The position numbers and the translations under genes were made by a program. Below the pieces are notes generated by a model. The model was not told where the DNA came from. It was given only the letters and a program-made list of their open reading frames with translations, and did no database searches. 64,000 bases of DNA from a virus (taxonomy: Duplodnaviria; Heunggongvirae; Uroviricota; Caudoviricetes), in IMG/VR virus record IMGVR_UViG_2850773344_000009; one strand, given 5' to 3'. Below are positions 1 through 43,182 of this stretch, piece after piece (the stretch's first letter is position 1; the number at the start of each line of letters is the position of its first letter).

Positions 1-398
1 TTGATGCCAGCGAGGTACAACCATCCCTCCTGTGTGGCAACATACGTCAGGTCCGCCACCCAGACCTGATTTGGTGCTGTAGGAGCGAACGTCTGGTTCA
101 GCAGATTTGGCGCAACTGGCAGATTGTGGTTCGGGTTCGTAGTCGCTCTGAACTTGCGTTTCTGCTTACAGCGTAGCCTCAGCTCCTTACGAAGACGTGC
201 CAGTCGGTCACGACCAACGATGATGCCATTCTCTGCCAGCTCCGTCTGGAGCCGCCGGGTTCCATATGTTTCGCGAGTGCGGATATGTGCCACCTTAATC
301 TCCAGTTTTAGCCGCTCATCACTTTGTTTTCTGTCTGAGGGTTCATGCTGTACCCAGTTGTAATAACCGCTCCTGGATACACCAAATACCTGACACAT
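1..398 (-). CDS. IS600 transposase OrfB, 5' part (continues beyond window edge)
   Basis: Mirror of the orfB reading frame seen at 41817..42254; no stop inside window. Confidence 0.7.
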   Translation of the reverse strand, partial: MCQVFGVSRSGYYNWVQHEPSDRKQSDERLKLEIKVAHIRTRETYGTRRLQTELAENGIIVGRDRLARLRKELRLRCKQKRKFRATTNPNHNLPVAPNLLNQTFAPTAPNQVWVADLTYVATQEGWLYLAGI

Positions 399-433
399 CG
401 CTTCAATGGGAAATTGTTGTCGCCATTGTTCGA

Positions 434-736
434 TTAACGCGTATTTTTCAGCGACTCCTGTGCAAAATACGCTGTTGCTTTTTTTAATATATCTCGCTCA
501 AGGCGAGCTTCATTTAACGCCTTACGCAGTTGCAGAATTTCAGATTCCAGTTCAGCCACCGTGCGGGAACCAGGAGTACCGAGCCCTTTTCTGGCGGCGG
601 TAACCCATTGTCCTAAAGTGCCTTCAGGAAGAGATAATCGGGAAGCGCCTTCACTGATCGAAAGTTGATTTTCAAGAACCGTTCTGACAGCTTCGGCTTT
701 GAACTCTTTAGAGTAACGTTGGGTTTTTCTGCTCAT
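434..736 (-). CDS. IS600 OrfA (HTH subunit of IS3-family transposase)
   Basis: 100-aa ORF MSRKTQRYSKEFKAEAVRTVLENQ..., identical to ORF at 41479..41781. Confidence 0.9.
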   Translation of the reverse strand: MSRKTQRYSKEFKAEAVRTVLENQLSISEGASRLSLPEGTLGQWVTAARKGLGTPGSRTVAELESEILQLRKALNEARLERDILKKATAYFAQESLKNTR

Positions 737-1252
737 TATTAGCTCCTTCTGATGCCATTCTATTTCAGGAAGGAGTGTCCGTTAAACTCAGGCTACCTCA
801 TTTATCCGTTAAAAGGGATATCAGTTAAGATATCCCGTGTAGGGTATAAGCCATTATCAAAGCCACTCTGTAGGGAATGGCTTTTGTGATGGCATCACTT
901 ACTCTTTACGCTGCTATCCCACTCATCCCGGAATTTTGATGGGTTATTGAAACCTTCTGCTGACATAACAACTTCTTCAATGTTTGGCTGAAATTAGGAT
1001 GTCTTTCCATCAGTCCGCCACCACAAAGAATCTTTTTTGCCATAAGGCAGGAGGTTCATCTTTCAGTGGCTGCCAGTGTTATTTCCCCACTTACTGGCTT
1101 GGGTTGTTTCGCGGTACTGCCGTAACTGGTTGCCCAGAATAAATTCCGGTTTCATTATCAAGCTCACCCATTGATGGGCTTTGTAATGGATAGCTGTTGC
1201 TCAGTTCTCGTAATGCTTTGATTTTTCCGATAACGCAGTTTTGCGTTTGCCA

Positions 1253-1975: not shown

Positions 1976-2413
1976 TTATTTCAGGCATTGCGTCCTGATG
2001 TATTCCTGCAGGTAGTTAACCTGCGCGGTTATCTTGTCGATTCCACTTCGGAGACGGTAATAATTGAGTTCAGCATCTGCTGTAAGTCCTGGGCTTTCTC
2101 CATCGCCCATGCCGCTGGCTCCGGTCTTTGACTTTGCACATGAGGCGGCGACTTGCAGCCGCTTACGCCCAGCAGAAACATCATCACGGAGACTTTCGAT
2201 AGTCGCGTTAGCATCAGCAAGCTCCTTTGTGTATCTGGCGTCAAGTTCTGCTACATCACGTTGACGCTTCTGCATGTCAGCGATTGTGGATGCGGCCTTA
2301 TCGCGCTGCTCTTTGTAGGTCATGGCGTTATCACGGTAATGATTAACCGCCCATGACAGACAGACGATGATGCAGATAACCAGAGCGGAGATAATCGCGG
2401 TTACTCTGCTCAT
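1976..2413 (-). CDS. Rz: Rz i-spanin (lambda-type)
   Basis: 145-aa [33 protein letters not shown]..., N-terminal TM segment, follows endolysin. Confidence 0.9.
2029..2214 (-). CDS. Rz1: Rz1 o-spanin lipoprotein embedded in +1 frame of Rz
   Basis: Embedded ORF with lipobox LLGVSGC and proline-rich tail; ATG confirmed at 2214 (plus-strand cat 2212..2214). Confidence 0.8.
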
Positions 2414-2887
2414 ACCTCAATCTCTCTGACCGTTCCGCCTGCTTCTTTGAATTTTGCAATCAGGCTGTCAGCCTTATGCTCGAACTGACCATAACCAGCA
2501 CCCGGCAGTGAAGCCCAGATATTGCTGCAACGGTCGATTGCCTGACGGATATCACCGCGATCAATCATCGGCCAAAGCGCCACGTTCCTTAATCTGCTGC
2601 AGCGCAACAGCGTCTTGGCTTTTGGGAGAGAAGTCTTTCAGGCCAAGCTGCTTACGATAGGCATCCCACCAACGGGAAAGAAGCTGGTAACGTCCTGCTG
2701 CTGTTGATTTGAGTTTTGGGTTTAGCGTGACAAGTTTGCGAGGGTGATCGGAGTAATCGGTAAATAGCTCTCCGCCAACAATGACGTCATAACCATGATT
2801 TCTGGTTTTCTGACGTCCGTTATCAGTTCCCTCTGACCACGCCAGCATATCGAGGAACGCCTTACGTTGATTATTGATTTCCACCAT
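2410..2887 (-). pseudogene. R: Lambda-type endolysin R (lytic transglycosylase) split by a 1-bp frameshift near 2563..2566
   Basis: Two ORFs (2561..2887 and 2410..2607) together match lambda R; frame breaks between ...IKERGAL and PMIDRGD... where window reads ttggccgatg instead of expected ttgccgatg-like sequence. Confidence 0.8.
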
Positions 2888-3194
2888 CTTCTACTCCGGC
2901 TTTTTTAGCAGCGAAGCGTTTGATAAGCGAACCAATCGAGTCAGTACCGATGTAGCCGATGAACACGCTCGTTATATAAGCGAGATTGCTACTTAGTCCG
3001 GCGAAGTCGAGAAGGTCACGAATGAACCAGGCGATAATGGCGCACATCGTTGCGTCGATTACTGTTTTTGTAAACGCACCGCCATTATATCTGCCGCGAA
3101 GGTACGCCATTGCAAACGCAAGGATTGCCCCGATGCCTTGTTCCTTTGCCGCGAGAATGGCGGCTAACAGGTCATGTTTTTCTGGCATCTTCAT
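2871..3194 (-). CDS. S: Holin S (lambda S107/S105 dual-start holin)
   Basis: 107-aa [39 protein letters not shown]... recognised as lambda S; Met1-Lys2-Met3 dual start. Confidence 0.95.
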
Positions 3195-3590
3195 GTCTTA
3201 CCCCCAATAAGGGGATTTGCTCTATTTAATTAGGAATAAGGTCGATTACTGATAGAACAAATCCAGGCTACTGTGTTTAGTAATCAGATTTGTTCGTGAC
3301 CGATATGCACGGGCAAAACGGCAGGAGGTTGTTAGCGCAACCTCTTGCCACCCGCTTTCACGAAGGTCATGTGTAGAAGGCCGCAGCGTAACTATTACTG
3401 ATGAATTCAGGATAGCCAGTGGCTACGGCTCAGTTTGGGTTGTGCTGTTGCTGGGCGGCGATGACGCCTGTACGCATTTGTTGATCCGGTTCTGCTTCCG
3501 GTATTCGCTTAATTCAGCACAACGGAAAGAGCACTCGGTGCATTTAAGCCAAGCCCCATAAGGGAGAATGCTCTTACCTGTTACACAGAT

Positions 3591-3657
3591 ATAAAAAATC
3601 CCGAAACCGTTATGCAGGCTCTAACTATTACCTGCGAACTGTTTCGGGATTGCATTT
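3591..3657 (-). terminator. tR' late terminator (end of 6S leader RNA)
   Basis: Minus-strand hairpin atcccgaaac...gtttcgggat followed by a T-run; region matches remembered lambda pR'-tR' sequence. Confidence 0.7.
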
Positions 3658-3754
3658 TGCAGACCTCTCAGCCTGCGATGGTTGGAGTTCCAGACGATAC
3701 GTCGAAGTGACCAACTAGGCGGAATCGGTAGTAAGCGCCGCCTCTTTTCATCTC

Positions 3755-3800
3755 ACTACCACAACGAGCGAATTAACCCATCGTTGGGTCAAATTTACCC
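3755..3800 (-). promoter_or_regulatory. Late promoter pR' / qut region downstream of Q
   Basis: Minus strand reads aaatttgacccaacgatgggttaattcgctcgttg, near-identical to remembered lambda pR' region (TTGACT in lambda). Confidence 0.55.
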
Positions 3801-3862
3801 AACTTTATTCAAAAAGTCAATATCATGCCGTTAATATGTTGCCATCCGTGGCAATCATGCTG

Positions 3863-4486
3863 CTAACGTGTGACCGCATTCAAAATGTTGTCTGCGATTG
3901 ACTCTTCTTTGTGGCATTGCACCACCAGAGCGTCATACAGCGGCTTAACAGTGCGTGACCAGGTGGGTTGGGTAAGATTTGGGATTAGCATCGTCACAGC
4001 GCGATATGCGGCGCTTGCTGGCATCCTTGAATAGCCGACACCTTTGCATCTTCCGCATTCTTTCTCAACAACTCTCCCCCACTGCTCTGTTTTTGCTATA
4101 TCAACCGCACGGCCTGTACCGTGACAATCTCTGCATCTTGCGCCAGGCGTCGCGGCACTACGGCAATAATCCGCATAAGCGAATGTTGCGAGCACTTGCA
4201 GTACCTTTGCCTTAGTATTTCCTTCGAGCTTTGCCACACCACGGTATTTCCCCGATACCTTGTGTGCAAATTGCATCAGATAGTTGATAGCCTTTTGTTT
4301 GTCGTTCTGGCTGAGTTCGTGCTTACCACAGAATGCAGCCATTCCGAATCCGGCTTGTGATTGCGCCATCCCCATAGCAGCCATCACATCAGTACCGGAA
4401 AGAGAGTCAGAAGCCGTAGCCCGTGGTGAGTCGCTCATCATCGGGCTTTTTGGCGAATGAAATTTAGCTACACTTTCGAGTCTCAT
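3863..4486 (-). CDS. Q: Late antiterminator Q (lambda-type)
   Basis: 207-aa ORF MRLESVAKFHSPKSPMMSDSPRATASDSLSG... recognised as lambda Q. Confidence 0.95.
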   Translation of the reverse strand: MRLESVAKFHSPKSPMMSDSPRATASDSLSGTDVMAAMGMAQSQAGFGMAAFCGKHELSQNDKQKAINYLMQFAHKVSGKYRGVAKLEGNTKAKVLQVLATFAYADYCRSAATPGARCRDCHGTGRAVDIAKTEQWGRVVEKECGRCKGVGYSRMPASAAYRAVTMLIPNLTQPTWSRTVKPLYDALVVQCHKEESIADNILNAVTR

Positions 4487-21005: not shown

Positions 21006-21353
21006 GTGGAAGAAGAAATCTTCACTCGTGAAGAGGCAGCGTCGTATCTGAAGGTAGACAAAGGCACTATCACGCAGTGGATACGAAGTGGACGACTTCA
21101 GGCCGCAAAGATAAATCCAGATAAACCTAAAAGCCCATATCGCATTTGCAAGTCAGACTGCATTGCGGCGCTTAAGTCTGTGAGACACAATAGCGCGGTG
21201 AATGCGGTTGATGTGCAGGAGGTTAAAGCATGTCAATCAAACTACGCGGTGGCACGTGGCACTGCGATTTCGTCGCGCCAGATGGATCAAGAGTTAGACG
21301 CTCTCTTGAAACATCGGACAAAAGGCAAGCGCAAGAACTTCACGATCGTCTGA
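21006..21353 (+). CDS. xis: Excisionase-like DNA-binding protein
   Basis: 115-aa ORF (GTG start) with HTH-like segment, immediately upstream of and overlapping int. Confidence 0.6.
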   Translation: MEEEIFTREEAASYLKVDKGTITQWIRSGRLQAAKINPDKPKSPYRICKSDCIAALKSVRHNSAVNAVDVQEVKACQSNYAVARGTAISSRQMDQELDALLKHRTKGKRKNFTIV

Positions 21354-22390
21354 AAGCAGAAGCGTGGAGAGTAAAAAATCTCGGGGAATCACCGAAAAAG
21401 CTATTCAAGGAAGCCTGCATACGGTGGCTGCGTGAGAAATCGGATAAGAAGTCCATTGATGATGACAAGAGCATTATATCGTTCTGGATGTTGCACTTCA
21501 GAGAAGCCATTCTCTCTGACATAACAACAGAAAAAATAATGGAGGCGGTAGACGGGATGGAAAACCGCCGCCATCGCCTGAACTGGGAGATGAGCCGGGA
21601 CAGGTGTTTGCGACTTGGCAATCCGGTGCCGGAGTATAAACCAAAGCTTGCAAGCAAAGGAACGAAGACGAGGCATCTGGCAATACTTCGCGCCATTCTC
21701 AATATGGCTGTTGAATGGGGATGGCTTGACAGGGCACCCAAAATATCAACACCACGCGTTAAGAATGGACGCATCAGATGGCTTACAGAGGAGGAATCGA
21801 AGCGCCTGTTTGCAGAAATTGCTCCTCACTTCTTCCCTGTGGTCATGTTTGCAATCACGACAGGCCTTCGCCGTTCCAACGTTACAGACCTTGAGTGGTC
21901 ACAGGTCGATCTGGATAAGAAAATGGCATGGATGCACCCTGATGAAACAAAAGCTGGCAATGCGATCGGAGTTCCTCTTAACGAAACCGCATGCCAGATA
22001 TTAAGAAAACAGCAGGGGCTCCATAAGAGATGGGTATTTGTCCACACCAAACCTGCCTACCGAAGCGACGGAACAAAAACAGCAGCGGTAAGGAAGATGA
22101 GAACCGACAGCAACAAGGCATGGAAGGGAGCGTTAAAGCGGGCAGGCATTAGCAACTTCCGCTTCCATGATCTGAGGCATACCTGGGCAAGCTGGCTGGT
22201 TCAGTCCGGTGTCTCTCTTCTTGCACTTAAAGAGATGGGAGGATGGGAAACTCTCGAAATGGTTCAAAGATACGCCCACCTTTCAGCCGGGCATCTCACC
22301 GAGCACGCAAGCAAAATCGATGCGATTATAAGTCGCAATGGCACAAATACGGCACAAGAGGAGAACGTGGTTTACTTAAATGCGAGGTAA
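21230..22390 (+). CDS. int: Tyrosine integrase (P22/SfV-like)
   Basis: 386-aa ORF with aggagg RBS; C-terminal R...HDLRHTWAS...Y motifs of tyrosine recombinases; stop 15 nt before tRNA-derived core. Confidence 0.9.
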   Translation: MSIKLRGGTWHCDFVAPDGSRVRRSLETSDKRQAQELHDRLKAEAWRVKNLGESPKKLFKEACIRWLREKSDKKSIDDDKSIISFWMLHFREAILSDITTEKIMEAVDGMENRRHRLNWEMSRDRCLRLGNPVPEYKPKLASKGTKTRHLAILRAILNMAVEWGWLDRAPKISTPRVKNGRIRWLTEEESKRLFAEIAPHFFPVVMFAITTGLRRSNVTDLEWSQVDLDKKMAWMHPDETKAGNAIGVPLNETACQILRKQQGLHKRWVFVHTKPAYRSDGTKTAAVRKMRTDSNKAWKGALKRAGISNFRFHDLRHTWASWLVQSGVSLLALKEMGGWETLEMVQRYAHLSAGHLTEHASKIDAIISRNGTNTAQEENVVYLNAR

Positions 22391-22404
22391 CTTATTGATT
22401 TAAA

Positions 22405-22450
22405 TGGTGCCGATAATAGGAGTCGAACCTACGACCTTCGCATTACGAAT
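22405..22450 (-). other. attP-like core: 3' terminal 46 nt of tRNA-Thr(CGU) (thrW type), not a complete tRNA
   Basis: Minus strand reads attcgtaatgcgaaggtcgtaggttcgactcctattatcggcacca (anticodon loop CGT through CCA); upstream tRNA half absent. Confidence 0.85.
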
Positions 22451-22651
22451 TATAAGAATCCGCTTGTAATTCAAAGGATTATCCCATCAACACTGCGCTC
22501 ACACGTCCCACCACATCAAAACATGTAAAGCCTTGCAAGCCATTGTGAGGCCTTATGTGTCTCAGTTTTGTCTCATCAGACATAGCAAGTATCGATCAAT
22601 TGAGACTTGGATGATAGACTTCATGCCTTTCAGAGCTCATTGATTAAATAA

Positions 22652-23014
22652 ATGTTAAAGTTATTTGTAAAGTACACATCTATAGGTGTGCTGAACACAC
22701 TTATACACTGGGTGGTTTTTGGTGTATGTATCTATGCCGCACATACCAGTCAGGCTCTGGCAAACTTCACAGGTTTCGTAGTGGCTGTGAGCTTTAGCTT
22801 CTTCGCGAATGCAAGATTCACATTCAAAGCATCGACTACAGCGATGCGCTACATGTTATACGTGGGATTTATGGGAATATTGAGTGTGATTGTTGGTTGG
22901 GCAGCTGATAAATGCTCACTTCCTCCAATAGTCACTCTTATCACCTTCTCCGCCATCAGTCTGGTGTGCGGTTTCGTCTATTCAAAGTTCATTGTCTTTA
23001 GGGATGCGAAATGA
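22652..23014 (+). CDS. gtrA: GtrA (bactoprenol-glucose flippase)
   Basis: 120-aa four-[25 protein letters not shown]..., first gene of gtr operon. Confidence 0.9.
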
Positions 23015-23934
23015 AAATATCTCTTGTCGTTCCTGTCTTCAATGAAGAAGAAGCGATACCTGTTTTCTATAAAACGGTACGTGAATTCCAAGAGTTGAAG
23101 CCATATGAAGTAGAAATTGTATTCATAAATGACGGAAGTAAAGATGCCACAGAGTCAATTATTAACGCGCTGGCTGTTTCAGACCCGCTAGTTGTTCCGC
23201 TGTCATTTACACGCAACTTTGGTAAAGAACCAGCCTTATTTGCAGGGTTAGACCATGCAAGCGGCGATGCTGTAATTCCTATTGATGTCGACCTGCAAGA
23301 CCCAATTGAGGTTATCCCTCATCTTATTGAAAAGTGGCAGGCAGGTGCTGACATGGTGCTTGCTAAACGTTCAGACCGCTCAACTGATGGACGACTGAAA
23401 CGTAAGACAGCTGAGTGGTTCTATAAATTACACAACAAAATAAGCACCCCAAAGATCGAGGAAAATGTCGGAGATTTTCGACTCATGTCTCGTGAGGTTG
23501 TGGAGAACATTAAACTGTTGCCTGAGCGCAATCTTTTCATGAAAGGCATACTGAGCTGGGTGGGTGGTCAGACGGATGTCGTTGAATATGTACGCGCAGA
23601 GCGTGTTGCTGGCATCTCAAAATTTAATGGCTGGAAATTATGGAATCTGGCACTGGAAGGTATCACAAGTTTTTCAACCTTTCCTCTTCGCGTATGGACT
23701 TATATAGGCTTGTTTGTTGCAAGCATTTCATTTTTATATGGTGCATGGATGATTATAGACACCCTTGTCTTTGGTAACCCAGTACGCGGGTATCCCTCCC
23801 TGCTTGTATCAATACTTTTCTTGGGTGGAGTGCAGCTGATCGGGATTGGTGTTCTCGGTGAATATATAGGCAGAATCTATATTGAAAGCAAACATCGTCC
23901 CAAATACATCATCAAAAATGAGAAACAAAAATGA
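23011..23934 (+). CDS. gtrB: GtrB (bactoprenol glucosyltransferase, GT2 family)
   Basis: 307-aa ORF with N-terminal GT2 domain (VVPVFNEEE..., DxD) and C-terminal TM helices. Confidence 0.9.
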
Positions 23935-25184
23935 AAAGCCTTAAAACATCATATGTAAAAAAACTATTTTTCTTAATTGCTGTATTTTTCATTGCGGTTA
24001 TTTTGATGTATTTGCGCCGTCCTGATATAATCAGAACACCGCAGTTTTGGGCAGAAGATGGTCATGTATGGTATGCTATGGCATACAATAATGGCATATT
24101 CACATCAATGATATTCCCTCAAAATGGATATTATCAAACCATATCAAAACTTATTGCCTCCATATCATTAAATTTTAATTTAATGTATGCCCCTTTAATT
24201 TTTAACATCTCCGCAATTATTGTTAGGGCATTGCTTGTGTCTTTCATACTCTCTGGAAGATTTAGTTACGTAAACATAACACCAAGAATATTTACTGCTT
24301 TGTTTATTATAATAATGCCGGAAGTATCAGAAGTGCACGCCAATGTTACTAATGATCATTGGTATTTATCACTATATTTACTTCTTGTTATGTTAGCTCC
24401 AAAGCCTACAAATAATTATCAAAAAGCACACGATTATATAGCGATAATCATATGTGGACTAAGTGGTCCATTTATAGTATTCATGGCTCCAATGGTAGGG
24501 ATAAATATACTTATACAAAAACGCTTATCTACAAAAAAAATAACCACTCACGAATACGTTTTCATTGCTATTTGTTTTATTCAATTTATTTCTATTATCA
24601 TGACATCCTCTGAGACCAGAGTTGATATGGCTCTTGGAGCAAATTTCGCAACACTTTGCAAAATATTAACAACAAAGGTTTTTCTGGGTTTATGGGCTAA
24701 TGGTGACTTTTTATCACCTTTATGGAATCATGATTCAATTTGCATTGCAATTACAATGATTTGTCTTTCCATCACTATTTTTACATTTATTGTTTCCAAT
24801 TACCCCATGCGCTCGGCAATAGTTTTCGCAATACTAACATTAACGTTTTCACTAGCAAAACCAATGCTTTCGTCTACAAGTGAGCAATGGCCATTATTAA
24901 TTCATGGCGGAGGAAGATATTCTGTCATACCAACAATTATATGGTACTCTGTATTGGTTTACTTCTTAAACTATATTTCCCACTTGCACTTTAAATTCCT
25001 ACCATGGATGTTATATACAACATCGTTAATCTCATGTTTATATTTTTTCAATCTTACCCCACTCCCAGATTACGGGTGGAAAGAGCAAGTTAAAAAATTT
25101 GAAAGTTTAGCACCAGGAGAATCGTATTCTTTCAAGTTCAACCCTGCAGGATGGACGATGACATTAATAAAAAAACAGCCTTAA
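23931..25184 (+). CDS. Type-specific O-antigen glucosyltransferase Gtr(type) (polytopic membrane protein; serotype identity not resolved)
   Basis: 417-aa multi-TM ORF in strongly AT-rich DNA directly after gtrB. Confidence 0.8.
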
Positions 25185-25236
25185 TGTTGAATGGTAGTTA
25201 CTTAATGTTATTGATCTAAGTTTTGCATCAATAAAT

Positions 25237-25257
25237 CCCCCCCGAAACTTAGGGGGG
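25237..25257. terminator. Bidirectional hairpin terminator between convergent gtr operon and tail genes
   Basis: ccccccc-gaaactta-gggggg stem-loop. Confidence 0.5.
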
Positions 25258-25305
25258 CATCTGCAGTTATAATTAACGGCCTCTTTCTTCATCCGATAAC
25301 GCCCC

Positions 25306-25713
25306 TTATTTATTTTCCTCTGGTTTTTTCGGCCACTCTATATTTTTTATATCAACACGCATCAATAGCACCCGATATTTTTTCCATGCCAGTAACAGTT
25401 TCGTTTCATCATCTGTTGCCATATCTAAATCAACCGCATCCTGAAGCGGCGCTATTACATTCGTTGCCTCTGCTATCAGTGCAGATTTCTTTTCATTATT
25501 TATTAAGGCTAATTGTTCTGGTGTTGGAGAAGGACGGTCAACAATGACAGGGTGACCATTCTCACCACAGGTAATCATTTTTGTTACACTCTGCGAATTA
25601 ATCAGTGTTTTCCACTCTGATTCCGAGATTTCCACTGCATCATCAGGAATATTGGTGCCGTGAAATTCAGTCGAATAAAATCCGTTTGTCGATGCAGAAT
25701 AAAAATATGACAT
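25306..25713 (-). CDS. Tail fiber assembly protein (Tfa)
   Basis: C-terminal [15 protein letters not shown]...IEWP motif typical of Tfa chaperones; ATG at 25713. Confidence 0.75.
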
Positions 25714-25717
25714 TTCG

Positions 25718-26368
25718 TTAATATCCCATTGCAATGTAATACGCATCAGCAGATGAACCATATCCTGAACCGGGCGACACTGTAATATCAAATCCAGTGT
25801 TATGGACATTTGTCGCCGATACAGTCGGCTGCCCTGACGCGCCAGTAACTTTTAATGTAACTACGACAGCAATGACTCTTGAGAACGTCATCGGAAACTT
25901 CATCCCGTATGTTGAAGATACATTCGGGGCACCATTCAACTGACCACACTGTAAAATTAATCCAGACGGAAATTTTTGCGCAGCAGCCGTTACGGTATTA
26001 ATTGACGCGAACAGGCTCATATCAGGTATCTGATTCGCCCCTGTACCTACATTCCTTTTAGCTGCTTCTCCCAAACCAAGGTTTTCGAGAGCCGTTTTCA
26101 CCGTGCCATCCGATTTGATATCGCCAAACGGATTCTTGCGGCTTAACAGCAGCGCGCGAAGTGCGGTAAGCAACTGATCGTGCCGCCCCTTCTCCAGGCT
26201 GGCACCGGATGCCTCCACCACGCTGCAAAGCTCCTCCTGCAACATGTCAAAGTAGTCATCATCCAGATCGGTGGCAGGCGTGCCAGTCTGGGGGTTACCA
26301 CGGGTAAAACCGTTCTTACCCGCGCCGAACTTATCCTTCTGCGCGGTTTTCGTGTCTATACGATGCAT
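25718..26368 (-). CDS. Tail fiber protein
   Basis: 216-aa ORF immediately upstream of tfa, downstream of baseplate genes. Confidence 0.55.
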
Positions 26369-26371
26369 GGA

Positions 26372-26956
26372 TTACTCCGGATATTTAAAAATCACATAGG
26401 TATGCGACGGGCAGAGTTTGTTAAGCACACATTCGACAACGGTGTCGCCCCAGATACGCAGCGCGGAATCACAGGGATCGCCACATGTCATCCAGGTGGT
26501 GTTTGTGGCGGCTGGCATGTTGACCTGCCAGTAATACCGCCATTCCGGCACATTCACCGCGTCAGTACAGGCCGATGAGCAGGTGAACGTGCTTTTGTCG
26601 TATCGCGTGATGGTAGCGTCTGGTCTGCCCAGGGCAGCAAGCTGTGCAAGATAAAAATTCTCATTGATGCCGCCCGCCAGGTTAACCTTCGCATCCAGCC
26701 GTTGCTGACGCTGGCGAAGGGTCTGTGTCCCTGCGGGAATACATTCATCCGGCAGACCGCACAGACGCTCCCAGCGGTTTATCAGTTCAGTGGTGGTGCG
26801 CGGATCCAGCTCCCGCATCAGGGCATCCGCACGCTGATGAACGCGGGTTAATGACGGTGCCGCACCGGCAATCGACGGATCGCTGGCTGACCACGCCGGA
26901 CCGGGGGGCAACAGTGCCGACAACAGACGGATGTAATCATCGTTTGTCACGTCCAT
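26372..26956 (-). CDS. Mu gp48-like baseplate/tail protein
   Basis: 194-aa ORF, position after baseplate J homolog. Confidence 0.55.
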
Positions 26957-28005
26957 GAAATCGTCCCCAGAACCGCCAGTTCATTTTTCGCAATGGAGAT
27001 ATTGTCTGCCGGTGCAAGCAACTGATGGCTGTATTCCCCGTTCGCACCGGAAATCGCCTCACTGATACGCGATACCTTCAGTTTTCCCTGCGGATAACCA
27101 TCACGCAGCAGGAACGAACGCAACTCGGCGGTGATGGCAGCACGTATTTCGGGTGTGTCCGGCGTCACGCGAATATGAAAATCCACCATATGCGCCACCG
27201 GCCTGAACACATACAAATCAGAGCCTGCCACCGGGGCCAGTGGCTCAATGTGTTGTCTTGCCGCCGTTTCCGTTGATTCTTCCGGAATGGGATTAATCAG
27301 GTCACTGCTGGCAATCATCACACCGACAGTTCCCGTTCCCATCCAGTGACGGTATGTCCATGCGCGGGTAATGCCGGGCACTTCTTTAGCCCAGACGACA
27401 TAGTCCCCGTCAGCCCCGCCCTGAGGCGTCCAGTAATACCGCTCAATGACGCGGGCGCGCCACGTTTCCAGCTCTTCAGTATCAAATCCGCCTGTAAGGG
27501 TGTCAGCCACACCGGAAGACGGCAGACCATTCACCGGCGTGACCAGGATTAATGCCGTACCGTCGTCAGCGTTACCGACCGCACCTGCACTTGAGCAGGC
27601 GATCGGCACGCGCAGGACACCACCGGTGCTGGTTGCATCGTCAGTTGTCGTGTACTGCACCAGGTCATCGCGCTGAATAACACTCCCGGCGGTCACCTTC
27701 AGGCCATCGCTGACACCTTCCCAGCGCATATACCCGCTGGCAGCCGTGGCCCCCTTGCGCGGACACCGTTTCATCGCAGCATGTCGCGCCAGCCAGGACT
27801 CATCGCACAGGTCAGGCAGCATGTTCATTGCCAGATAATCGATGTAACCGTAAACCGTATGCAGCGCCGCCGCATACACCTTTGCCCGCACGTCTTCATC
27901 CATGCGCCGGAGAGTGTCGCTGACGTCCAGCCTGGCGAATAAATCGTTACGGAGCATACTGATATTTTCTGCCAGCGTCGGGCGCTGAAATTCACTGTCC
28001 GCCAT
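26947..28005 (-). CDS. Baseplate J-like protein (Mu gp47-like)
   Basis: 352-aa ORF in conserved Mu-like baseplate gene order. Confidence 0.7.
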
Positions 28006-28420
28006 GCGTTATCGCACTCCACAGATCATCAAAAGAAATCATTACCGGTCCGTCACGACGCCAGAGAGTGATACTGTTACCCAGTTCATTAATCCCGGTG
28101 CGGCGGATATCCAGATCAATACGGGACACCACGCCGTCATCAATCATCCATTGCAGGCATTCGCGGATATACCCCCTTACCGTCTGCACCAGCTGATTGG
28201 TCAGTTTGCTGCGCTGAAGCAGCCACAGTCGGGAGCCGTAACGGTCATTCTGTACCGCAGGCCAGGTATCCCCCCACCATCCCATCGGGACATCGGCGTT
28301 GTCATCAGGCTCCGCCCGCCGCCAGGTAAACAGGGAAATCACCACGGCGCGGGTCAGCGGATCCAGCTGTGCGCTGGCGCAGGTGCGTTTACCGTTCACC
28401 GTCAGCCACAGTTCCATCAT
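27992..28420 (-). CDS. Mu gp46-like baseplate protein
   Basis: 142-aa ORF, synteny. Confidence 0.55.
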   Translation of the reverse strand: MMELWLTVNGKRTCASAQLDPLTRAVVISLFTWRRAEPDDNADVPMGWWGDTWPAVQNDRYGSRLWLLQRSKLTNQLVQTVRGYIRECLQWMIDDGVVSRIDLDIRRTGINELGNSITLWRRDGPVMISFDDLWSAITHGGQ

Positions 28421-28965
28421 GCCTCCATCGCTTTATCAGGTTTGTCGGTGTTACTGCCCTGACCGTTCTCTCTGTGACGATGCCCGTTATAGGCAAGCCG
28501 CATCGCTGACATGGTGGTACCGCCGGAGTCGCACAGGTCTTTCACCTGTCCGGTCACTTCCAGGTCCATTTCAAAACGTGCTCTGGGCGCATTGCGAAAC
28601 GTGATCGTTTTACCTGCACCGTCCACCACGATCCCCTCCCGGGTCAGCGTCACAGACTGCCCCCGATCGTCATAGACAGCCACCTCACCCGTCTGCAGCC
28701 CTTTCAGGCGGTAGCGCCGGTCCGACACCGTAACAACCACCGCATGAGAACGGTCGCCATCCGGAAACAACACCACCGCTTCCGCACCGCTGTTTGCCCT
28801 TGCGGTAAAACCGTAGGGTTCAAGATGTTCAATCCCGGCTTTGGGTTCACCGGCAATCAGGGACACATCCACGGTCTGACATTTCGTGGCGGCACTGATG
28901 CTTTTCACCACTGCCCGCCCAATCAGGCCGAGGAGTTGTCGCTGCATGGCTTCAATCGTCCTCAT
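28417..28965 (-). CDS. Baseplate assembly protein V / spike (Mu gp45-like)
   Basis: 182-aa ORF, synteny and size. Confidence 0.6.
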   Translation of the reverse strand: MRTIEAMQRQLLGLIGRAVVKSISAATKCQTVDVSLIAGEPKAGIEHLEPYGFTARANSGAEAVVLFPDGDRSHAVVVTVSDRRYRLKGLQTGEVAVYDDRGQSVTLTREGIVVDGAGKTITFRNAPRARFEMDLEVTGQVKDLCDSGGTTMSAMRLAYNGHRHRENGQGSNTDKPDKAMEA

Positions 28966-30044
28966 CAGAACGGGTCCTCCTGTACTCTGGCTTTTTTCTT
29001 TTTCCGCGCGCCGGGGGCTTCGGGTTCAGGCAGATAAGCATCAGGCGGGCCGACACGGATTTCCGTCAGGGTGCCGTTCTGGTCCTGAGTAAACGTGACT
29101 TCCGAAACAAGCAGTTCGGTATTGTCGAAACCACAGACCGGATCAAAGACAATCACCCGCTGGTTGGGCTGCCACAGCGTACCGTTACCCTGTCGCCAGC
29201 CCTGCACCACATAGGTGGTTTCATCCGTCCGCGCCGCCCGTTGCCGGGCTTCAAAGTCAGCACGCGCAATACAGCCTGCCCCCGTAGCCTGCCCTGTCTG
29301 CCTGATATACATCGGACGGTAACGGTCAATAAATGCGTCCTCTGTGCGGGCCCGCAGCGCGGTGGTGGTGGCCTCACCGAAATCATCGTCGTTTCCGGCA
29401 CGCTGCCCCGCCACCTGGTAAACAGAAAATCGCTCCCGGATACTCTTCTCCGTATCGCAGGAAAGGATGTTTTCCCCGAGTACCAGCGCAGTATGTGCCC
29501 GCGTTGAGCCAATACCGCCAATCACCAGCCTGCCGTGCGGGTCGTCGTAAGCCAGTGCCTGCTGCTGACCGAGTATTTTGTTGATTACCTCAATCACCGT
29601 TTCACCGTGATCAGGCTGAACATCAGGAATAACACCCGACGGCGCACCGCTGTTCACCACCTCAATGCCGAAAGGCGCAGCAAGCGCCTGCGCAATCTGT
29701 ACCAGCGATCGTCCGTTAAACTGTGTCGGTTCGGCTGCACAGTCAATCAGGTCAGCGGTCAGACTGCGTCCGGCAATACCGGTGCTGACCGAACGGGCAT
29801 CGTAACGAACGGGCGTCGCCTCCACCCAGCCGGTGATCACCAGCTCATCACCAATCAGCACCTCCACTTTTGAACCGTTTTTAATGCGCGGCTGAAGCGT
29901 GGTAATACCCTCATCTCCCGGCCACTGGCGGGTGATCTCCACACTGAAATCCCGCGCCAGCCGTTCAATACCGACACCGATGCGCACCGATGTCCAGCCA
30001 TTCCACTCCCGGCCATTTACCCGTAGCGTGACATTGTCGTTCAT
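28965..30044 (-). CDS. Baseplate hub protein (Mu P-like)
   Basis: 359-aa ORF, synteny. Confidence 0.6.
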   Translation of the reverse strand: MNDNVTLRVNGREWNGWTSVRIGVGIERLARDFSVEITRQWPGDEGITTLQPRIKNGSKVEVLIGDELVITGWVEATPVRYDARSVSTGIAGRSLTADLIDCAAEPTQFNGRSLVQIAQALAAPFGIEVVNSGAPSGVIPDVQPDHGETVIEVINKILGQQQALAYDDPHGRLVIGGIGSTRAHTALVLGENILSCDTEKSIRERFSVYQVAGQRAGNDDDFGEATTTALRARTEDAFIDRYRPMYIRQTGQATGAGCIARADFEARQRAARTDETTYVVQGWRQGNGTLWQPNQRVIVFDPVCGFDNTELLVSEVTFTQDQNGTLTEIRVGPPDAYLPEPEAPGARKKKKARVQEDPF

Positions 30045-31411
30045 TGCACTGGCACCTTCAGAGGGATCACCGGCACAAAGCCGGGATGCGTAATGGCATT
30101 ACGCCGGATAATGTCCGCGTCACGCGCCGCGTTATCAAACCAGGTCGCCGCCAGCACCAGCGCGGGTAAAACCTCATCCGGTGTGCGCTGAATGATCCGT
30201 GCAGACTGTTCAAGGCGCGTGTTGATATCCGCATTCAGATCTGCTTTCACCCGGCGCAGCGCCAGAAACAGCGCATCGCTGGTTGTACGGGACAACTCCT
30301 TATCAATTGCCGTATTCAGTGTGTCGCGAATGTCAGTCAGTTCTTCCCACGTCGGCAGGTCAACCGTGTTTTTCACCGCCGGTGCATTGTTCAGTGCCGG
30401 ATGCGTGACGGAAGGCCAGCCAGTGCTCTGCGCGGGTGTTGTTGCCTGCCCCACTGCGGCATTCTGCATCACCGCGGAAGTTGTTGGCGCAGGCAATCGG
30501 GTGACGGCATACGCCGCTTCGCTGATTGCGGTCGTACGAAGGGTGCTGGCAACCATGTTACGCTGCTGCGTCGCCGTGGCGGTGGTTTTACTGTCCGTTT
30601 TCCAGACGCCGCGCGGTTGCAGATCGCTGCCGAGGCTGACACCGGAAAGCGTTTTGATCATGGTGACCAGGTCGCTGGCGTTACCATAAAGGCGTTTCCC
30701 GGTACGCCACATTTTCTGCACCTGCTCAACGAAATTTTTGCCTGACGATGGCGGCGGCAGAAGTACCGAGATATCCCCCTGCAACAGCCTGGCGGCATCC
30801 GATACGGCAGAATCCACCACTTTCATCGCATCAGAAACATACCCAAGCATTGTGCTGGCATTACCGACGACGTCGTTCTGCACAAAATCTGCCACGCCAT
30901 CGATACTGAAACCACTGAAGCTATCACTGATGCAGTCATCCAGTGCAGAACAGGATGACATCAGCGTCTGCGCCGTCGCCGCACCTGAAGTGGGGTAAGA
31001 GAGTTCTCCCGCTTCGACAAACTTCAGGTCAAAGCGGACAATACGCCCTTCACTCTTCGATGTGCTGACCCGAACTTCCCCGTCAACACAGACTTTCAGC
31101 TCACCATAAGTCGGATGGACAAGCGTGCCAGGACCGGGTTTATTCAGCGCGTCAATCAGGCGATCGCGCTGGTCAAAGCAGTCATCTCCCACCACATAAG
31201 CTGTGATGGACGGGCGAAAAGTGATTTTCCCCAGGTCTTCGGTATAGGGTTTGTCGCGGTTCGGGTATTCGTGCGTTTCCACACGGCGACCGGTTCCCGC
31301 ACTTTCTTCTTCAACCTTAAACGGCACACCGCGAAATGACGCGTCCTGAAGTCTGTCTTTCCACGTCATATAAACTCCGTACATAAAAAATCCCACCGGA
31401 GTGGGACTCAT
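30041..31411 (-). CDS. DNA circulation protein (Mu N-like); start possibly at internal Met
   Basis: 456-aa ORF directly downstream of tape measure gene. Confidence 0.6.
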   Translation of the reverse strand: MSPTPVGFFMYGVYMTWKDRLQDASFRGVPFKVEEESAGTGRRVETHEYPNRDKPYTEDLGKITFRPSITAYVVGDDCFDQRDRLIDALNKPGPGTLVHPTYGELKVCVDGEVRVSTSKSEGRIVRFDLKFVEAGELSYPTSGAATAQTLMSSCSALDDCISDSFSGFSIDGVADFVQNDVVGNASTMLGYVSDAMKVVDSAVSDAARLLQGDISVLLPPPSSGKNFVEQVQKMWRTGKRLYGNASDLVTMIKTLSGVSLGSDLQPRGVWKTDSKTTATATQQRNMVASTLRTTAISEAAYAVTRLPAPTTSAVMQNAAVGQATTPAQSTGWPSVTHPALNNAPAVKNTVDLPTWEELTDIRDTLNTAIDKELSRTTSDALFLALRRVKADLNADINTRLEQSARIIQRTPDEVLPALVLAATWFDNAARDADIIRRNAITHPGFVPVIPLKVPVQ

Positions 31412-31429
31412 TAACAGATTAATTTTTCA

Positions 31430-33265
31430 TTACCTGCCAAAGCGCGTATAGCCAACATCATGGCTGACATCAAAACCGCTGGATCGCGTTTCCATAACCC
31501 GCATACCCGGAGGCGAATTCACAAAAGAGACCTTGATCTCACCATCAACTTTTGGCGCAGAAGCTTTGTTAATCATGAAGGGATTCGGGCCTGTGGCATC
31601 GGAGGCGTTGTTTGACTGAGCCGGATCTACCGCCTGATAAGGTGTGTATCCCCGTGCCGGTATTCCCGTCCCATAAGCATCATAAGCACCCGCGCCCCAC
31701 TGCGCCGAGTTAATGGCATCGACCGTGTCACCGGAACTATCGGTAAACCATTCAATAATCGGCTTCAGCTTATCCCACATATCCTGAAACCACTTAACAA
31801 CCGGTCCCCAGTTATTGATCACCATCCCCAGCGGCGACCAGGCAAAAACCTTCTTCAGAAGTTCCCAGCCAGCCTCAAAATAAGGACTAATGGTTTCCCA
31901 GAGTTTCTTAAAATAAGGTCCGACAACATCCCAGTTAGTGATAATTAATCCCGCAGCCAGGGCAATCGCCGTCGCAATCATGCCAATCGGCGTCATCGAC
32001 ATGATCCTGCTGACGATACTGATGGCACTGCCCACGCCCATCAATCCCAGTTTCAGAATCGCAAGACCGGCAGCAAGCCCGACGACACCGCGAATAACCC
32101 GGGGATTTTCATCCGCAAACTTCGTGAATTTTTCCCCTAACTCCCCCAGCCATTGCGTGATATTTTTGGCGTCACCAGAAAATGCGCCGCCAATAGCCGC
32201 AAGGCCGTTAGTTGCGGTCCCCGTCATTGCCTCCCACAGGTTGGACAGCGTACCAAGCTGGGCCTGAACACGTTTATTCAGACTGGCCTGTTTATTCATC
32301 TTCTGCTGGATCTGATCGTAACCATCCTTTCCTTTATCGATCAGAGCATTTACCACCTGAAGGGTTTCGGCATCATCACCAAATATTGCCTTAAGTACAC
32401 CTGTTCGCTTAACGTCGGTCAGTTTTCGCAGCTTTGCCAGTTGTTTAAACATGTTATCAAGACCGCCAAAACTCCCTTTGCCGTCAGTAAAATCGAGCTG
32501 TACCCCGAGTTTCTGGCGGGCCATAACTTTATTGACGTCCCTGATTTTCTTAACGCTTAATCCGGACTGGATAACTTTTCGCAGGGCATTACCTGCCGAC
32601 TCCCCGTTCATCCCCATCTGATCCATCATGACGCTGATGGGGGCAAGGCTCTGTGCAGCCTGAAGACCGTCCTTGTTCACCATCTTCAGAACAGAACTGG
32701 TTTTAGTGAAGAAGGACAACATGTTGGTATCGTCAACGCCCAGATAAAACGCCTTCTGGATAGTGTCGAACAGCCCCATCATGTCTTCTGACGCCGTTCC
32801 GGTAGCATCCTGCATCTTTGCAGCAAACTCAGCAGCCGCTTCCGGTGTTTTTTTCAGTTGTACCGCAAGATAAGCTGTCGCTTTACCCACACCGCCAAGA
32901 ATGTTTTCTGCCTGGATCCCCTGACGCACCAGCATCTGCATCATGTTCTGGAAATCAGCCGTTGTACCGGGTAGCTGGTTACCCAGGCCAATAGCCAGTT
33001 TATTGATGTCCTGAAAGCTCTTTCCAACCTCGCCGTTCGCATCCATCATGGCGACTTTCAGCCCGGTGGCGGCGTTTTCCTGATCGGCATAAGATTTCAG
33101 GGAAAGCGTCAGACCCGCAGCCAGTCCGCCACCAAGCGCCAGCCCACCCTGTGACGCTTCTTCCGCCTGGCGTTTAAATCCCCGGATTTTCTTTTGCATT
33201 TTCGACAGCGCGGGAGAAAGCCTGTCGACACCGGTGATCAACGCCTTAAGCTCAAATTCAGCCAT
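31430..33265 (-). CDS. Tail tape measure protein
   Basis: 611-aa ORF, Gly/Ala-rich with hydrophobic segments, downstream of chaperone with frameshift. Confidence 0.8.
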   Translation of the reverse strand: MAEFELKALITGVDRLSPALSKMQKKIRGFKRQAEEASQGGLALGGGLAAGLTLSLKSYADQENAATGLKVAMMDANGEVGKSFQDINKLAIGLGNQLPGTTADFQNMMQMLVRQGIQAENILGGVGKATAYLAVQLKKTPEAAAEFAAKMQDATGTASEDMMGLFDTIQKAFYLGVDDTNMLSFFTKTSSVLKMVNKDGLQAAQSLAPISVMMDQMGMNGESAGNALRKVIQSGLSVKKIRDVNKVMARQKLGVQLDFTDGKGSFGGLDNMFKQLAKLRKLTDVKRTGVLKAIFGDDAETLQVVNALIDKGKDGYDQIQQKMNKQASLNKRVQAQLGTLSNLWEAMTGTATNGLAAIGGAFSGDAKNITQWLGELGEKFTKFADENPRVIRGVVGLAAGLAILKLGLMGVGSAISIVSRIMSMTPIGMIATAIALAAGLIITNWDVVGPYFKKLWETISPYFEAGWELLKKVFAWSPLGMVINNWGPVVKWFQDMWDKLKPIIEWFTDSSGDTVDAINSAQWGAGAYDAYGTGIPARGYTPYQAVDPAQSNNASDATGPNPFMINKASAPKVDGEIKVSFVNSPPGMRVMETRSSGFDVSHDVGYTRFGR

Positions 33266-33406
33266 GTGTGCGTTTCTCCTGCTCTATCCTGTTTGCCTGA
33301 CTGACCAGTAAGGGAATTTCACTGATCGGCATATTCAGCAATTCGAAAGGATTAATGCGCCAGTAGCTGGCGCAGTCAAAGAAGCGATCAGTGAGGTATT
33401 CAGCCG

Positions 33407-33676
33407 TCAGGCCTGGAGGAAAAAACCAGCCACAAGCCACGCCGCTGCATTCAGGTCTGCCGGAGACATCTGGTCGACAGAGCTTTGCGGCACTTTCGCC
33501 AGCCGCACAATGTATTTCGACACCACATGCGCCAGAAGTCTGACTGACTCATCCTGATTCATCTGGTAGGGATACCCCAGCTCGCGGACATCCTTCCCGG
33601 TGGGCTCATCAAACTCCAGTACGGAGAGTGTCTCGCCATGAGCAGTAATCGGTTTCTTTAACTCAAGCTCTTTCAT
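33407..33676 (-). CDS. Tail assembly chaperone (G-like); -1 frameshift extension continues to 33258
   Basis: 89-aa ORF ending in slippery ttttttc; overlapping -1 frame ORF 33258..33440. Confidence 0.65.
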   Translation of the reverse strand: MKELELKKPITAHGETLSVLEFDEPTGKDVRELGYPYQMNQDESVRLLAHVVSKYIVRLAKVPQSSVDQMSPADLNAAAWLVAGFFLQA

Positions 33677-34032
33677 TACTGGTAATCCCCTTCTTCACCG
33701 TGGAACTCAAGATCAACCGTGCCTTCTTCGGCATTATGGTTCGCTTCGCCGTGCAGCCAGGCAGACGACAGTACATAGACCTGACCGTTCGCCAACTCGG
33801 CAGTGATTGTCATCTCATCAGACGAGGTGATTTTGTTCACCGGAAAATTCTTCGGCACCTTGAAGGTCCCTTTGACATAAGGCGCACGGTGAGTTTCCTT
33901 GCGGTCCACTGAACCGTCCAGGCCGATGATGTCATCATTGACCGTCCTGTTCATGGGCACCTCAATGCCGCCGGTCAGCGATAGCTGCTGACCGTCAATT
34001 TTGAAATAACAGGTTCCCCCGATACGGGCCAT
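33676..34032 (-). CDS. Tail tube protein
   Basis: 118-aa ORF between sheath and chaperone. Confidence 0.7.
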   Translation of the reverse strand: MARIGGTCYFKIDGQQLSLTGGIEVPMNRTVNDDIIGLDGSVDRKETHRAPYVKGTFKVPKNFPVNKITSSDEMTITAELANGQVYVLSSAWLHGEANHNAEEGTVDLEFHGEEGDYQ

Positions 34033-35528
34033 TATGCAGACTCCTCTGAATACTGAAGACGGAACTGATTAACCACGGCAAAGACACGCAGCTGGTTAAC
34101 ATAGTCAGGCGGGAACAGCGTGTTAAGGCGGTTCGGATCGCTGGCATCACGCTCCACAACCAGGTACTGCTTAAACAGTTCGTAGTTTTCCACGATCCCC
34201 GCACGCTCAAGCTGACGGTAGGTTGCCAGCAGTTCCCCTTTGATCACCGCCGGGGTGACAATCGCCTGACCGGGACCAAAGCGGGTACCGTCACTGGCAA
34301 GCTTGTGACGCCCGTACTTACTGGTAATGACGGATTTCAGTTTGCGCAGTACATACGCGCTGGTATGCAGCGTCTCACTGTCGAGGTAACTGTTATCCGC
34401 AACCCCGTAAGCATTTTTCCTGTACGTGGTGACATCACGCTGAATGCGCAGCACCCCGCTTTCGACATACGCCGTTGCCACGCCATGAGACAGCAGGGTC
34501 TGCTGCTCGGTCATCGTGAACCGTTTCCCCTTCGGCGCAGGCAGCATACCCACCAGCTCACCGGTCTGCGTGGGACGTGCCGGATCGTTGCGGATAAACA
34601 CCGCTGCGCGGGCGGTACGGCTTGCCGCCAGCTCGTCGGCAGGCGTCTGGGTCTCTTTTTCGTACCCCGCCAGGGTGATGTGCTGCTGGTTAAACTGGTC
34701 ACCTGCGTTCACCAGTTCTGACAGTGTGCCGGTCTTTGCCGTATACACATGACCATACAGCTGACGCGCATAGCTCCAGCGACCGCTGGTATCGTTCATC
34801 TCGGTCACCAGCGTGTTAACGGAGGCCGTGTCGTTGAACGGCAGACCGATATAATCAAACGGCTCATCCGCCATTGCAGCCACCGCGCCGGTGAGAACCG
34901 GAGCGCCCGTTCCGGCGGTCCCCGTCGCCACGGCAATCTGTACGCCCGCTGGCAGCACTTCGCCCCCACCGAAGCCGTAGTAATTGAGGCTGACAGGAAT
35001 TTCATTCCCGCAAAGCCCCTTATGACGCGCGGTCAGCGTGACAACACCAGCCGAAGATGAAGCTGTAAACGGCAGAGTCGGAACGGCATTGATGGCATCT
35101 TTGATACTGCTGGCAATCGTCGTGACGTTATCGCCGTTGGTCACCGGAGCCTGCACGCGGGTACGTCCCACATAGACATTCACCGTGCCGCTTTCGGTTG
35201 CTTCCCCGGTCACCGTCAGCGTAACCGTTGCCGCCGCGCCTGTGGCTTCCGGAACGGCAATCACATACAGCTCACCAAACGGGTCGGTCTGGCGATAAGC
35301 CTCGACCATACGCGCCAGCTGACTTCCCGCACCACAAATCTGGCGTGCATAGTCTGCCGACGGCATCAGCACCAGACTGTTGGCAACAATCTCTGCACCG
35401 TTATTGGCATGACCAATCAGCAGCGATGCTCCGCTGTCCTGTGCAGTATTCGCAGCCTGGTTATCCATTTCCGCATAAAACAGCGGAACCAGCGTATTCG
35501 ACGGAATGGTGTTAAAGCTTATCGTCAT
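34032..35528 (-). CDS. Contractile tail sheath protein
   Basis: 498-aa ORF, size and synteny of Mu L-type sheath. Confidence 0.8.
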   Translation of the reverse strand: MTISFNTIPSNTLVPLFYAEMDNQAANTAQDSGASLLIGHANNGAEIVANSLVLMPSADYARQICGAGSQLARMVEAYRQTDPFGELYVIAVPEATGAAATVTLTVTGEATESGTVNVYVGRTRVQAPVTNGDNVTTIASSIKDAINAVPTLPFTASSSAGVVTLTARHKGLCGNEIPVSLNYYGFGGGEVLPAGVQIAVATGTAGTGAPVLTGAVAAMADEPFDYIGLPFNDTASVNTLVTEMNDTSGRWSYARQLYGHVYTAKTGTLSELVNAGDQFNQQHITLAGYEKETQTPADELAASRTARAAVFIRNDPARPTQTGELVGMLPAPKGKRFTMTEQQTLLSHGVATAYVESGVLRIQRDVTTYRKNAYGVADNSYLDSETLHTSAYVLRKLKSVITSKYGRHKLASDGTRFGPGQAIVTPAVIKGELLATYRQLERAGIVENYELFKQYLVVERDASDPNRLNTLFPPDYVNQLRVFAVVNQFRLQYSEESA

Positions 35529-35682
35529 CGGTGTTCACCTTTTTATTCACGCGCCGGATATCACCCGCTGCTTCACGGCGCAGCCAGTAGTTGTTCTCAT
35601 CAACATTTCGCCCTTCGGCGGGCAAAAGGTCGCCGCGGGCAGGGTCAGGCACTGACCGCCCTTTAACAGGTTTGACAAACAT
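35512..35682 (-). CDS. Small conserved tail-region protein
   Basis: 56-aa ORF MFVKPVKGRSVPDPARGDLLPAEGRNVDENNYWLRREAAGD..., hand-translated. Confidence 0.4.
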   Translation of the reverse strand: MFVKPVKGRSVPDPARGDLLPAEGRNVDENNYWLRREAAGDIRRVNKKVNTDDDKL

Positions 35683-35690
35683 GAGGATCC

Positions 35691-36251: not shown

Positions 36252-36754
36252 CTGTGTCGTCGCTCCGGCTTCAGTGATTTACGCAATTCCCGCGCCAGAA
36301 AATAGCGTGTCCAGCTGCGGTTCTTTTCAAGCGTTTCCACCATGAAGTTATTACGTGGAGCCAGTCGCCAGCCGCTGCCACCGGATGCACCACGATGATG
36401 GCTGCGACGACGCTTTGCCCCTCGCCTCACGCCATAGAACAAAAAAGCCGGATAAAAATCACCGGTGATACGGCGGTTTCCCTCTCCATTACGCTGGTTA
36501 GGGGCTATACGTGCCATAAAACCAGGGCGATGTTTACTGGCTCTGGGTACCATGTAACCAATCGAACGAGCCAGGCGTCCGGTCTGATAACCGGGGTTTT
36601 CACCCGGTGCCGACCGCGCACGGCGCATCACCAGCCGACGGGCATCACGCATATGACGCTGACCAATCGTGACAAACGCCCGCCGGACACGGGCGCGGTT
36701 AAAGCGCATCTCCGCGGGCTGCTGAAAATCAACGTGCAAAAAGGAAGTCGCCAT
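36248..36754 (-). CDS. Virion morphogenesis / head-tail joining protein
   Basis: 168-aa Arg-rich ORF, synteny. Confidence 0.45.
   Translation of the reverse strand: MATSFLHVDFQQPAEMRFNRARVRRAFVTIGQRHMRDARRLVMRRARSAPGENPGYQTGRLARSIGYMVPRASKHRPGFMARIAPNQRNGEGNRRITGDFYPAFLFYGVRRGAKRRRSHHRGASGGSGWRLAPRNNFMVETLEKNRSWTRYFLARELRKSLKPERRHR

Positions 36755-42299: not shown

Positions 42300-43182
<883 letters not shown>

Follow-up and report, generated by a model that had tools for sequence, protein, structure and literature searches.

Probable pseudogenization of the lambda-type endolysin gene R by a one-base insertion in a cryptic prophage remnant of the Shigella flexneri serotype 5 lineage

In the model for host cell lysis by phage lambda, the S105 holin makes lethal holes in the inner membrane; these let out the endolysin, which destroys the peptidoglycan (PMC6116005). 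The spanins Rz and Rz1 are released only after the peptidoglycan has been destroyed, and then fuse the inner and outer membranes (PMC6116005). In Shigella flexneri, the prophages at proA-adrA have undergone massive loss of genes and are described as cryptic (PMC5596473). The literature provided general statements of this kind on cryptic S. flexneri prophages and on lambda lysis, and nothing on the specific locus described here. This locus lies in a stretch of 64,000 nucleotides from an IMG/VR record of a tailed phage (IMGVR_UViG_2850773344_000009), which we refer to as the window. The window is a patchwork of prophage pieces of the S. flexneri 8401/M90T lineage, separated by insertion sequences (IS). 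Near one of its ends, a gene related to lambda R is split between two reading frames. We suggest, with a probability of about 90%, that this break is a genuine, lineage-specific one-base insertion, and that R is a pseudogene in a cryptic lambdoid prophage remnant of the S. flexneri serotype 5 lineage (strains 8401 and M90T).

The split gene belongs to a lambda-type late-gene block that spans 1976..4486 on the minus strand, with the gene order Q, S, R and Rz with embedded Rz1. Its features are as follows.

1976..2413, minus strand: i-spanin gene Rz, 145 aa, uninterrupted (Pfam Phage_lysis, 7.4e-35)
2029..2214, minus strand: o-spanin gene Rz1, 61 aa, in the +1 frame of Rz, uninterrupted, with the lipobox LLGVSGC (VSGC)
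2410..2568, minus strand: C-terminal remnant of R, residues Met107-Val158 in the shifted frame, 52-aa product (PMIDRGD...REIEV*)
2561..2887, minus strand: N-terminal fragment of R (R'), 108 aa, consisting of residues 1-105 and the out-of-frame ADD, followed by TGA
2572..2573, minus strand: site of the one-base insertion, GG on the coding strand versus a single G in relatives (CTTTGGCCG versus CTTTGCCG)
2871..3194, minus strand: holin/antiholin gene S, 107 aa, intact, with the dual start Met1-Lys2-Met3 (Pfam Phage_holin_3_1, 2.4e-30)
3195..3862, minus strand: late regulatory region between Q and S, a 668-base spacer with pR' (~3791..3820), qut and tR' (~3589..3648)
3863..4486, minus strand: late antiterminator gene Q, 207 aa, intact (Pfam Antiterm, 1.3e-57)

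The genes surrounding R are highly similar to those of known phages. With the stop codon counted, Q is identical to lambda Q at 207/208 aligned positions and to Q of phage HK446 at 208/208, and S is identical to lambda S at 107/108, with one residue differing; the exact Q protein and the exact S protein are each found on at least 1000 contigs. S, which begins with MKM and overlaps the start of R by 17 nt, is a class I holin with a dual start. Upstream of the lysis genes, Q is accompanied by pR', qut and tR', as in a lambda-type cassette; in a three-way alignment with lambda and HK446, the Q-S spacer hardly differs from lambda in its first 275 and last 250 columns, and pR' is annotated at the homologous place in HK446. 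Directly downstream of R lies Rz, with Rz1 in its +1 frame. Rz is as long as the other full-length proteins listed for its cluster, and its exact sequence was seen only on about 13-16 contigs of the S. flexneri type. We compared the translation of the Rz1 frame with the Rz1 proteins of HK446 and lambda; relatives of 61 aa are named "Lipoprotein Rz1". At the level of the sequence, the uninterrupted reading frames, the Pfam matches and the lipobox thus bear out the claim of the initial annotation that S, Rz and Rz1 are intact.

Lambda R, by comparison, is reproduced only jointly, by the two overlapping minus-strand ORFs 2561..2887 and 2410..2568. This had been proposed in the initial annotation, and it holds for both the ORF list and the alignment with R of HK446, which contains exactly one indel in 478 columns (window GCTTTGGCCGATG, HK446 GCTTTGCCGATG). 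Around the lesion, the window reads CTTTGGCCGATG and its relatives CTTTGCCGATG. The insertion adds a G to the coding strand, i.e. one of the two Cs at plus-strand positions 2572/2573. As a consequence of the duplication of this G after codon 105, the frame closes three codons on, at codon 109, and the 108-aa fragment ends with ...IKERGALADD*, the premature TGA being at 2561..2563. The native Met107 ATG of R at 2566..2568 overlaps the end of the frame of the N-terminal fragment (ATGATTGA), and the R stop at 2410..2412 overlaps the start of Rz. The initial annotation had given the join between IKERGAL and PMIDRGD exactly and had correctly attributed it to an extra G/C; the place it named, 2563..2566, marks the premature TGA and the Met107 ATG instead and is ~7-10 nt off the insertion. 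Its wording of a homopolymer is also inapt, as the change is from G to GG beside CC, a run that grows from one to two bases only.

The length of the cassette points in the same direction. Our cassette query comprises 1219 bases versus 1218 bases in all 61 full-length phage matches listed and in the best E. coli matches, which fits a one-base insertion specific to the window. While an endolysin of the lambda R type has one continuous frame of ~158 codons, residues 107-158 are here in the other frame. Thus, with its frame ending at codon 109, this R is a pseudogene of the lambda R-type family and not a functional member of it. The N-terminal fragment retains the conserved Glu19 (WSEGT, with E at position 19), which we take to be the catalytic residue of lambda-type R.

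The initial annotation had offered two alternatives for the break, a true inactivating mutation or a homopolymer sequencing error. In the latter case, the true genome would have a continuous R, and the extra base would be an artefact of sequencing or assembly that has to be corrected. Indels of a single base are the most frequent kind of error in assemblies, and the base calls at this site are known here from assemblies alone. The same allele, however, recurs across different projects. The exact 108-aa fragment has been deposited as a "putative endolysin" from S. flexneri 5 str. 8401 (ABF02555.1, Q0T7S1) and S. flexneri 5a M90T (EID60881.1) and a third time as NCBI SUI54378.1, and the 52-aa C-terminal product is present in the protein collection. 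At the DNA level, the frameshift allele is in three NCBI assemblies (GCA_026013175.1, GCA_900457185.1 and GCA_017179675.1), in the assemblies of four SRA runs (SRR14227215, SRR14227213, SRR5018380 and SRR1811686) and in the JGI contig 3300001148 More10kbN_1001754 (L002), which extends to proA/proB. The comparison with sibling strains, for which the initial annotation had asked, agrees with these records: every locus that we fetched has the allele, the allele-bearing loci (L002-L006 and L009-L013) are 99.98-100% identical to the window where compared, and there is no sibling with an intact R among them. In two newer NCBI assemblies (L010 and L013), R is uncalled as a gene. Moreover, among the contexts in which this exact Rz adjoins a lambda-type R, none has an intact R.

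The support for the allele thus consists of agreement among assemblies and deposited records, which stands in for a read pile-up. Several of the SRA runs may be from the same laboratory strain (M90T), and the independent natural isolates are fewer than the records. Because independently produced records share the identical allele, we reject the homopolymer sequencing error, for which the run at the site, only two bases long, is in addition a poor substrate; the true inactivating mutation is supported by the same recurrence in assemblies and proteins. As would suit an artefact, scans of the species-representative genomes (one genome per species) and of the metagenome contigs with a frameshift 40-mer and then with a 21-mer gave zero matches. 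The metagenome result carries little weight, because the JGI contig L002 carries the 21-mer and yet was not returned. Taking both sides together, we assign a negligible probability to an error of sequencing or assembly. Outside S. flexneri, we searched 5426 complete E. coli genomes, of which 1466 have sequence homologous to the segment, at 1579 places in total. The insertion is missing from all of these places; the best of them match across the site at 70/71 with one gap, and none reaches 99% identity.

Removal of the extra G gives an R of 158 aa, which is 156/158 identical to lambda lysozyme (PDB 1AM7; residues 1-158 versus 1-158, E = 2.6e-105) and is an exact match to a protein found on at least 1000 contigs, mostly from E. 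coli. Relative to R of HK446, the window has 16 substitutions, all of them synonymous, and the frame-corrected proteins are identical; relative to lambda R, there are 23 substitutions, 20 synonymous and 3 non-synonymous. The frameshift is therefore the sole lesion in R and is evolutionarily recent. No Pfam model matches lambda-type R, intact or split, and a single-sequence AlphaFold model of the frame-corrected R, addressed to the question of whether the break lies in a loop, has a mean pLDDT of 37, too low to support a structural argument.

Many E. coli assemblies have gene calls for short C-terminal fragments of R, 52-85 aa in length. Examples from the cluster of the 52-aa fragment are P0016, on 130 contigs, and P0018, on 88 contigs, and the sources name such fragments, e.g., "hypothetical protein" or "muramidase (phage lysozyme)". 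These calls point to other, independent truncations of lambda-type R in E. coli prophages.

Could the two halves of R in the window still yield an active enzyme? This would be the case if a +1 ribosomal frameshift or transcriptional slippage occurred at UUG-G, or if translation reinitiated at the Met107 ATG (ATGATTGA) and the fragments reassembled. Skipping of the extra G would restore the exact wild-type ALPMID. Likewise, the Met107 ATG precedes the premature TGA by 5 nt, many assemblies have a gene call for the 52-aa product and, in principle, the C-terminal fragment can be made from this ATG, which overlaps the frame that ends at the premature stop. By contrast, GCU UUG GCC GAU contains no known slippery motif, no rare or stop codon and no long homopolymer, the nearest Shine-Dalgarno-like AAGGA is 17 nt upstream of the Met107 ATG, and lambda lysozyme fragments are not known to complement each other. 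Also, neither the listed phage relatives nor the E. coli places found show the two-frame state. We consider residual function by recoding or by a split enzyme extremely unlikely. Specifically, we rejected a programmed frameshifting or recoding site: the listed phage relatives and the best E. coli places have R in a single frame, and an arrangement that is missing in the listed relatives is not a conserved recoding site. On a more speculative note, reinitiation at Met107 might give a weakly active split endolysin composed of the 108-aa and 52-aa products, or the endolysin-less holin-spanin module might have been selected in Shigella as a device for non-lytic death or release; we give these two ideas very little credence.

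The element around the cassette bears on what the loss of R means for the prophage. The features concerned, including all IS copies in the window, are listed below.

1..800, minus strand: IS3-family element (orfA 434..736; Pfam HTH_Tnp_1), which ends the phage DNA ~1.2 kb past Rz
9728..10066, minus strand: cII, named from a reading of the sequence
10138..11484, plus strand: IS4 transposase gene, between cro and cII (Pfam Nterm_IS4 and DDE_Tnp_1)
11565..11912, minus strand: cro, named from a reading of the sequence
11884..12516: cI repressor gene, intact
13132..13545: N-like ORF, called N from a reading of the sequence, for its arginine-rich N-terminus
~14782..15479: IS1 copy in the early-left region
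41414..42254: IS3-family copy (inverted copy of the first element, 41414..42251)
42300..43509: IS copy
56315..57519: IS copy
62772..64000: IS copy

Altogether, at least seven IS copies lie in the 64 kb, and they comprise the IS3 family (including an inverted pair), IS4, IS1 and IS2. The inverted copy of the first IS3-family element, at about 41414..42254, is itself truncated by another IS.

Downstream of Rz, phage homology continues through an intact 173-aa KilA-N gene up to window position 801. We considered whether this gene had been truncated by the IS and rejected this idea, as 173 aa is the length of nearly all listed cluster members and the homology extends to 801. Beyond the IS3-family element, L002 contains a fragment of the 3' end of an integrase gene with att, followed by proA/proB. 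Terminase, head and tail genes are missing after the lysis cassette. On the other side of the late-gene block, IS4 is positioned inside the rightward early operon whose transcription yields Q. The R frameshift occurs together with IS4, IS1, an IS after the cassette and a lack of adjoining morphogenesis genes, as expected for a pseudogene in a cryptic prophage.

The remainder of the window contains pieces of other prophages and a second lysis cassette.

21230..22390: integrase gene, directly abutting the att region and gtrA-gtrB-gtrV (together 21230..25184)
22387..37246, minus strand: SfV-like O-antigen-conversion (gtrV) and myovirus tail/head block, 97.6% identical to SfV 5793-20655
41073..41414, minus strand: SfV-like piece of the large terminase gene, 342 bases, 93%
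about 43635..56321, minus strand: P22-like head and DNA-injection module, 96-97% identical to APC_JM3.2, Dewey and IME10
60622..62209, plus strand: second lysis cassette, of a different type
60622..60837, plus strand: class II holin gene of the second cassette, 71 aa, followed by a 104-aa ORF
61212..61745, plus strand: lysozyme gene of the second cassette, signal-anchor type, 177 aa, intact

The order integrase-att-gtr is the arrangement of attP in a free phage and differs from a simple prophage end. Beside proA, just outside the window (L002 9352..9770), there is another integrase 3' end with att, which is 98.8% identical to 22032..22450. From this duplicate, we suggest that tandem integration took place at the proA-side att site and that IS copies then mediated a rearrangement. 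In the SfV-like part, the IS3-family copy at 41414 cuts the large terminase gene, and there is no small terminase gene; thus, the SfV-like serotype-converting prophage is also defective. The P22-like module is bounded by IS elements, and its terminase-side end is shortened. The S-R-Rz cassette likewise has Dewey and IME10 among its closest matches, so it may share an origin with the P22-like module; the two may represent one P22-like prophage that was split by rearrangement. In the second lysis cassette, Rz has a GTG start (61742) and TGA as its codon 3 (61748..61750), while a relative (L014) reads ATG AGC AGA. As a consequence of this stop codon, the second cassette has lost the i-spanin and not the endolysin.

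Based on the lambda model, the consequences of the R lesion can be predicted. Because it is without the last third of the R fold, the 108-aa product is likely devoid of useful cell-wall-cutting activity, i.e. inactive as a peptidoglycan-cleaving enzyme. Expression of Q and the late operon would still let the S holin permeabilize and kill the cell, while the cell wall would stay intact and the Rz/Rz1 spanins would be trapped rather than released. Firing of the late operon would, therefore, be expected to result in death without lysis. Such expression is, however, doubtful, given the IS4 copy that breaks the operon between cro and cII.

The initial annotation had regarded an inactivating mutation as consistent with a domesticated prophage. 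Selection would then have removed the endolysin, either because accidental lysis was avoided or because a holin-only module was kept for another use. In line with such a scenario, R alone is damaged in the cassette with S, Q, Rz, Rz1 and pR'-qut-tR' all intact, and the second cassette also has a single point lesion. However, R makes up 39% of the 1219-base cassette, and a single random lesion in it is, therefore, unremarkable. Since the frame-corrected R has no amino-acid change relative to HK446, the lesion is also young, and the other genes have had no time to decay. Moreover, a holin without an endolysin remains lethal, and loss of R alone thus gives the host no protection from death, while the early promoter is already separated from Q by IS4. 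The two single lesions affect different lysis genes and suggest general erosion, two cases being no test of this. Overall, adaptive inactivation seems to us improbable, and domestication is more than the evidence shows: the prophage remnant is decaying and broken up by IS, and gives no sign that selection kept or removed any lysis gene. Neutral decay is most simply the default reading and does not require adaptation, even if the two cannot be told apart with one lesion. The R lesion would then represent one more neutral hit in a prophage with three IS insertions and no adjacent morphogenesis genes.

The split R gene is already present in public annotation, and it is a case of ordinary gene decay. 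It would best be annotated as one frameshifted R pseudogene instead of a 108-aa "putative endolysin", and it should not be "corrected" as a sequencing error. As such, it adds a further example to the well-documented decay of prophages in the IS-rich S. flexneri genome. In addition, the insertion could serve as a mark of the 8401/M90T (serotype 5) clade. Had the lesion been selected, it would bear on how hosts disarm the lysis modules of prophages; the present evidence gives no indication of this.

Compared to lambda, for which structures of R are available (PDB 1AM7 and 3D3D), the locus has S, R and Rz/Rz1 in the same order, with the overlaps of starts and stops, the position of Rz1 inside Rz and pR'-qut-tR' all preserved. 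It differs from lambda in that R is split by the +1 insertion after codon 105, and in that Rz/Rz1 is of the HK97/HK446 type (145 aa) rather than of the lambda type (153 aa), with 91 identities between the two. The closest relatives of the 1219-base cassette, with 96-97.7% DNA identity, are the temperate coliphages HK446, HK75, mEp234, IME10, Dewey and epsilon34, and E. coli prophages. Unlike the window, these coliphages and prophages have the single G and a continuous R of 158 codons. The deposited proteins of 8401 (ABF02555.1/Q0T7S1) and M90T (EID60881.1) match the 108-aa fragment of the window without any difference and represent the same locus, and the neighbouring Rz (ABF02556.1) and KilA-N protein (ABF02557.1) of 8401 are also exact matches. 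With the cryptic serotype-converting prophages at proA-adrA (thrW) of S. flexneri, i.e. the SfV, SfI and SfII remnants, the window shares the adjoining proA/proB and an SfV-like block, and heavy IS-mediated loss has similarly affected the proA-adrA prophages of other strains (PMC5596473). A simple reading in which the cassette is part of the SfV-like prophage was rejected: the identity to R of the SfV reference is only 84.5% over 393 bases, and the other parts of the SfV lysis cassette give no DNA match. Instead, the cassette resembles those of HK446- and IME10-type phages.
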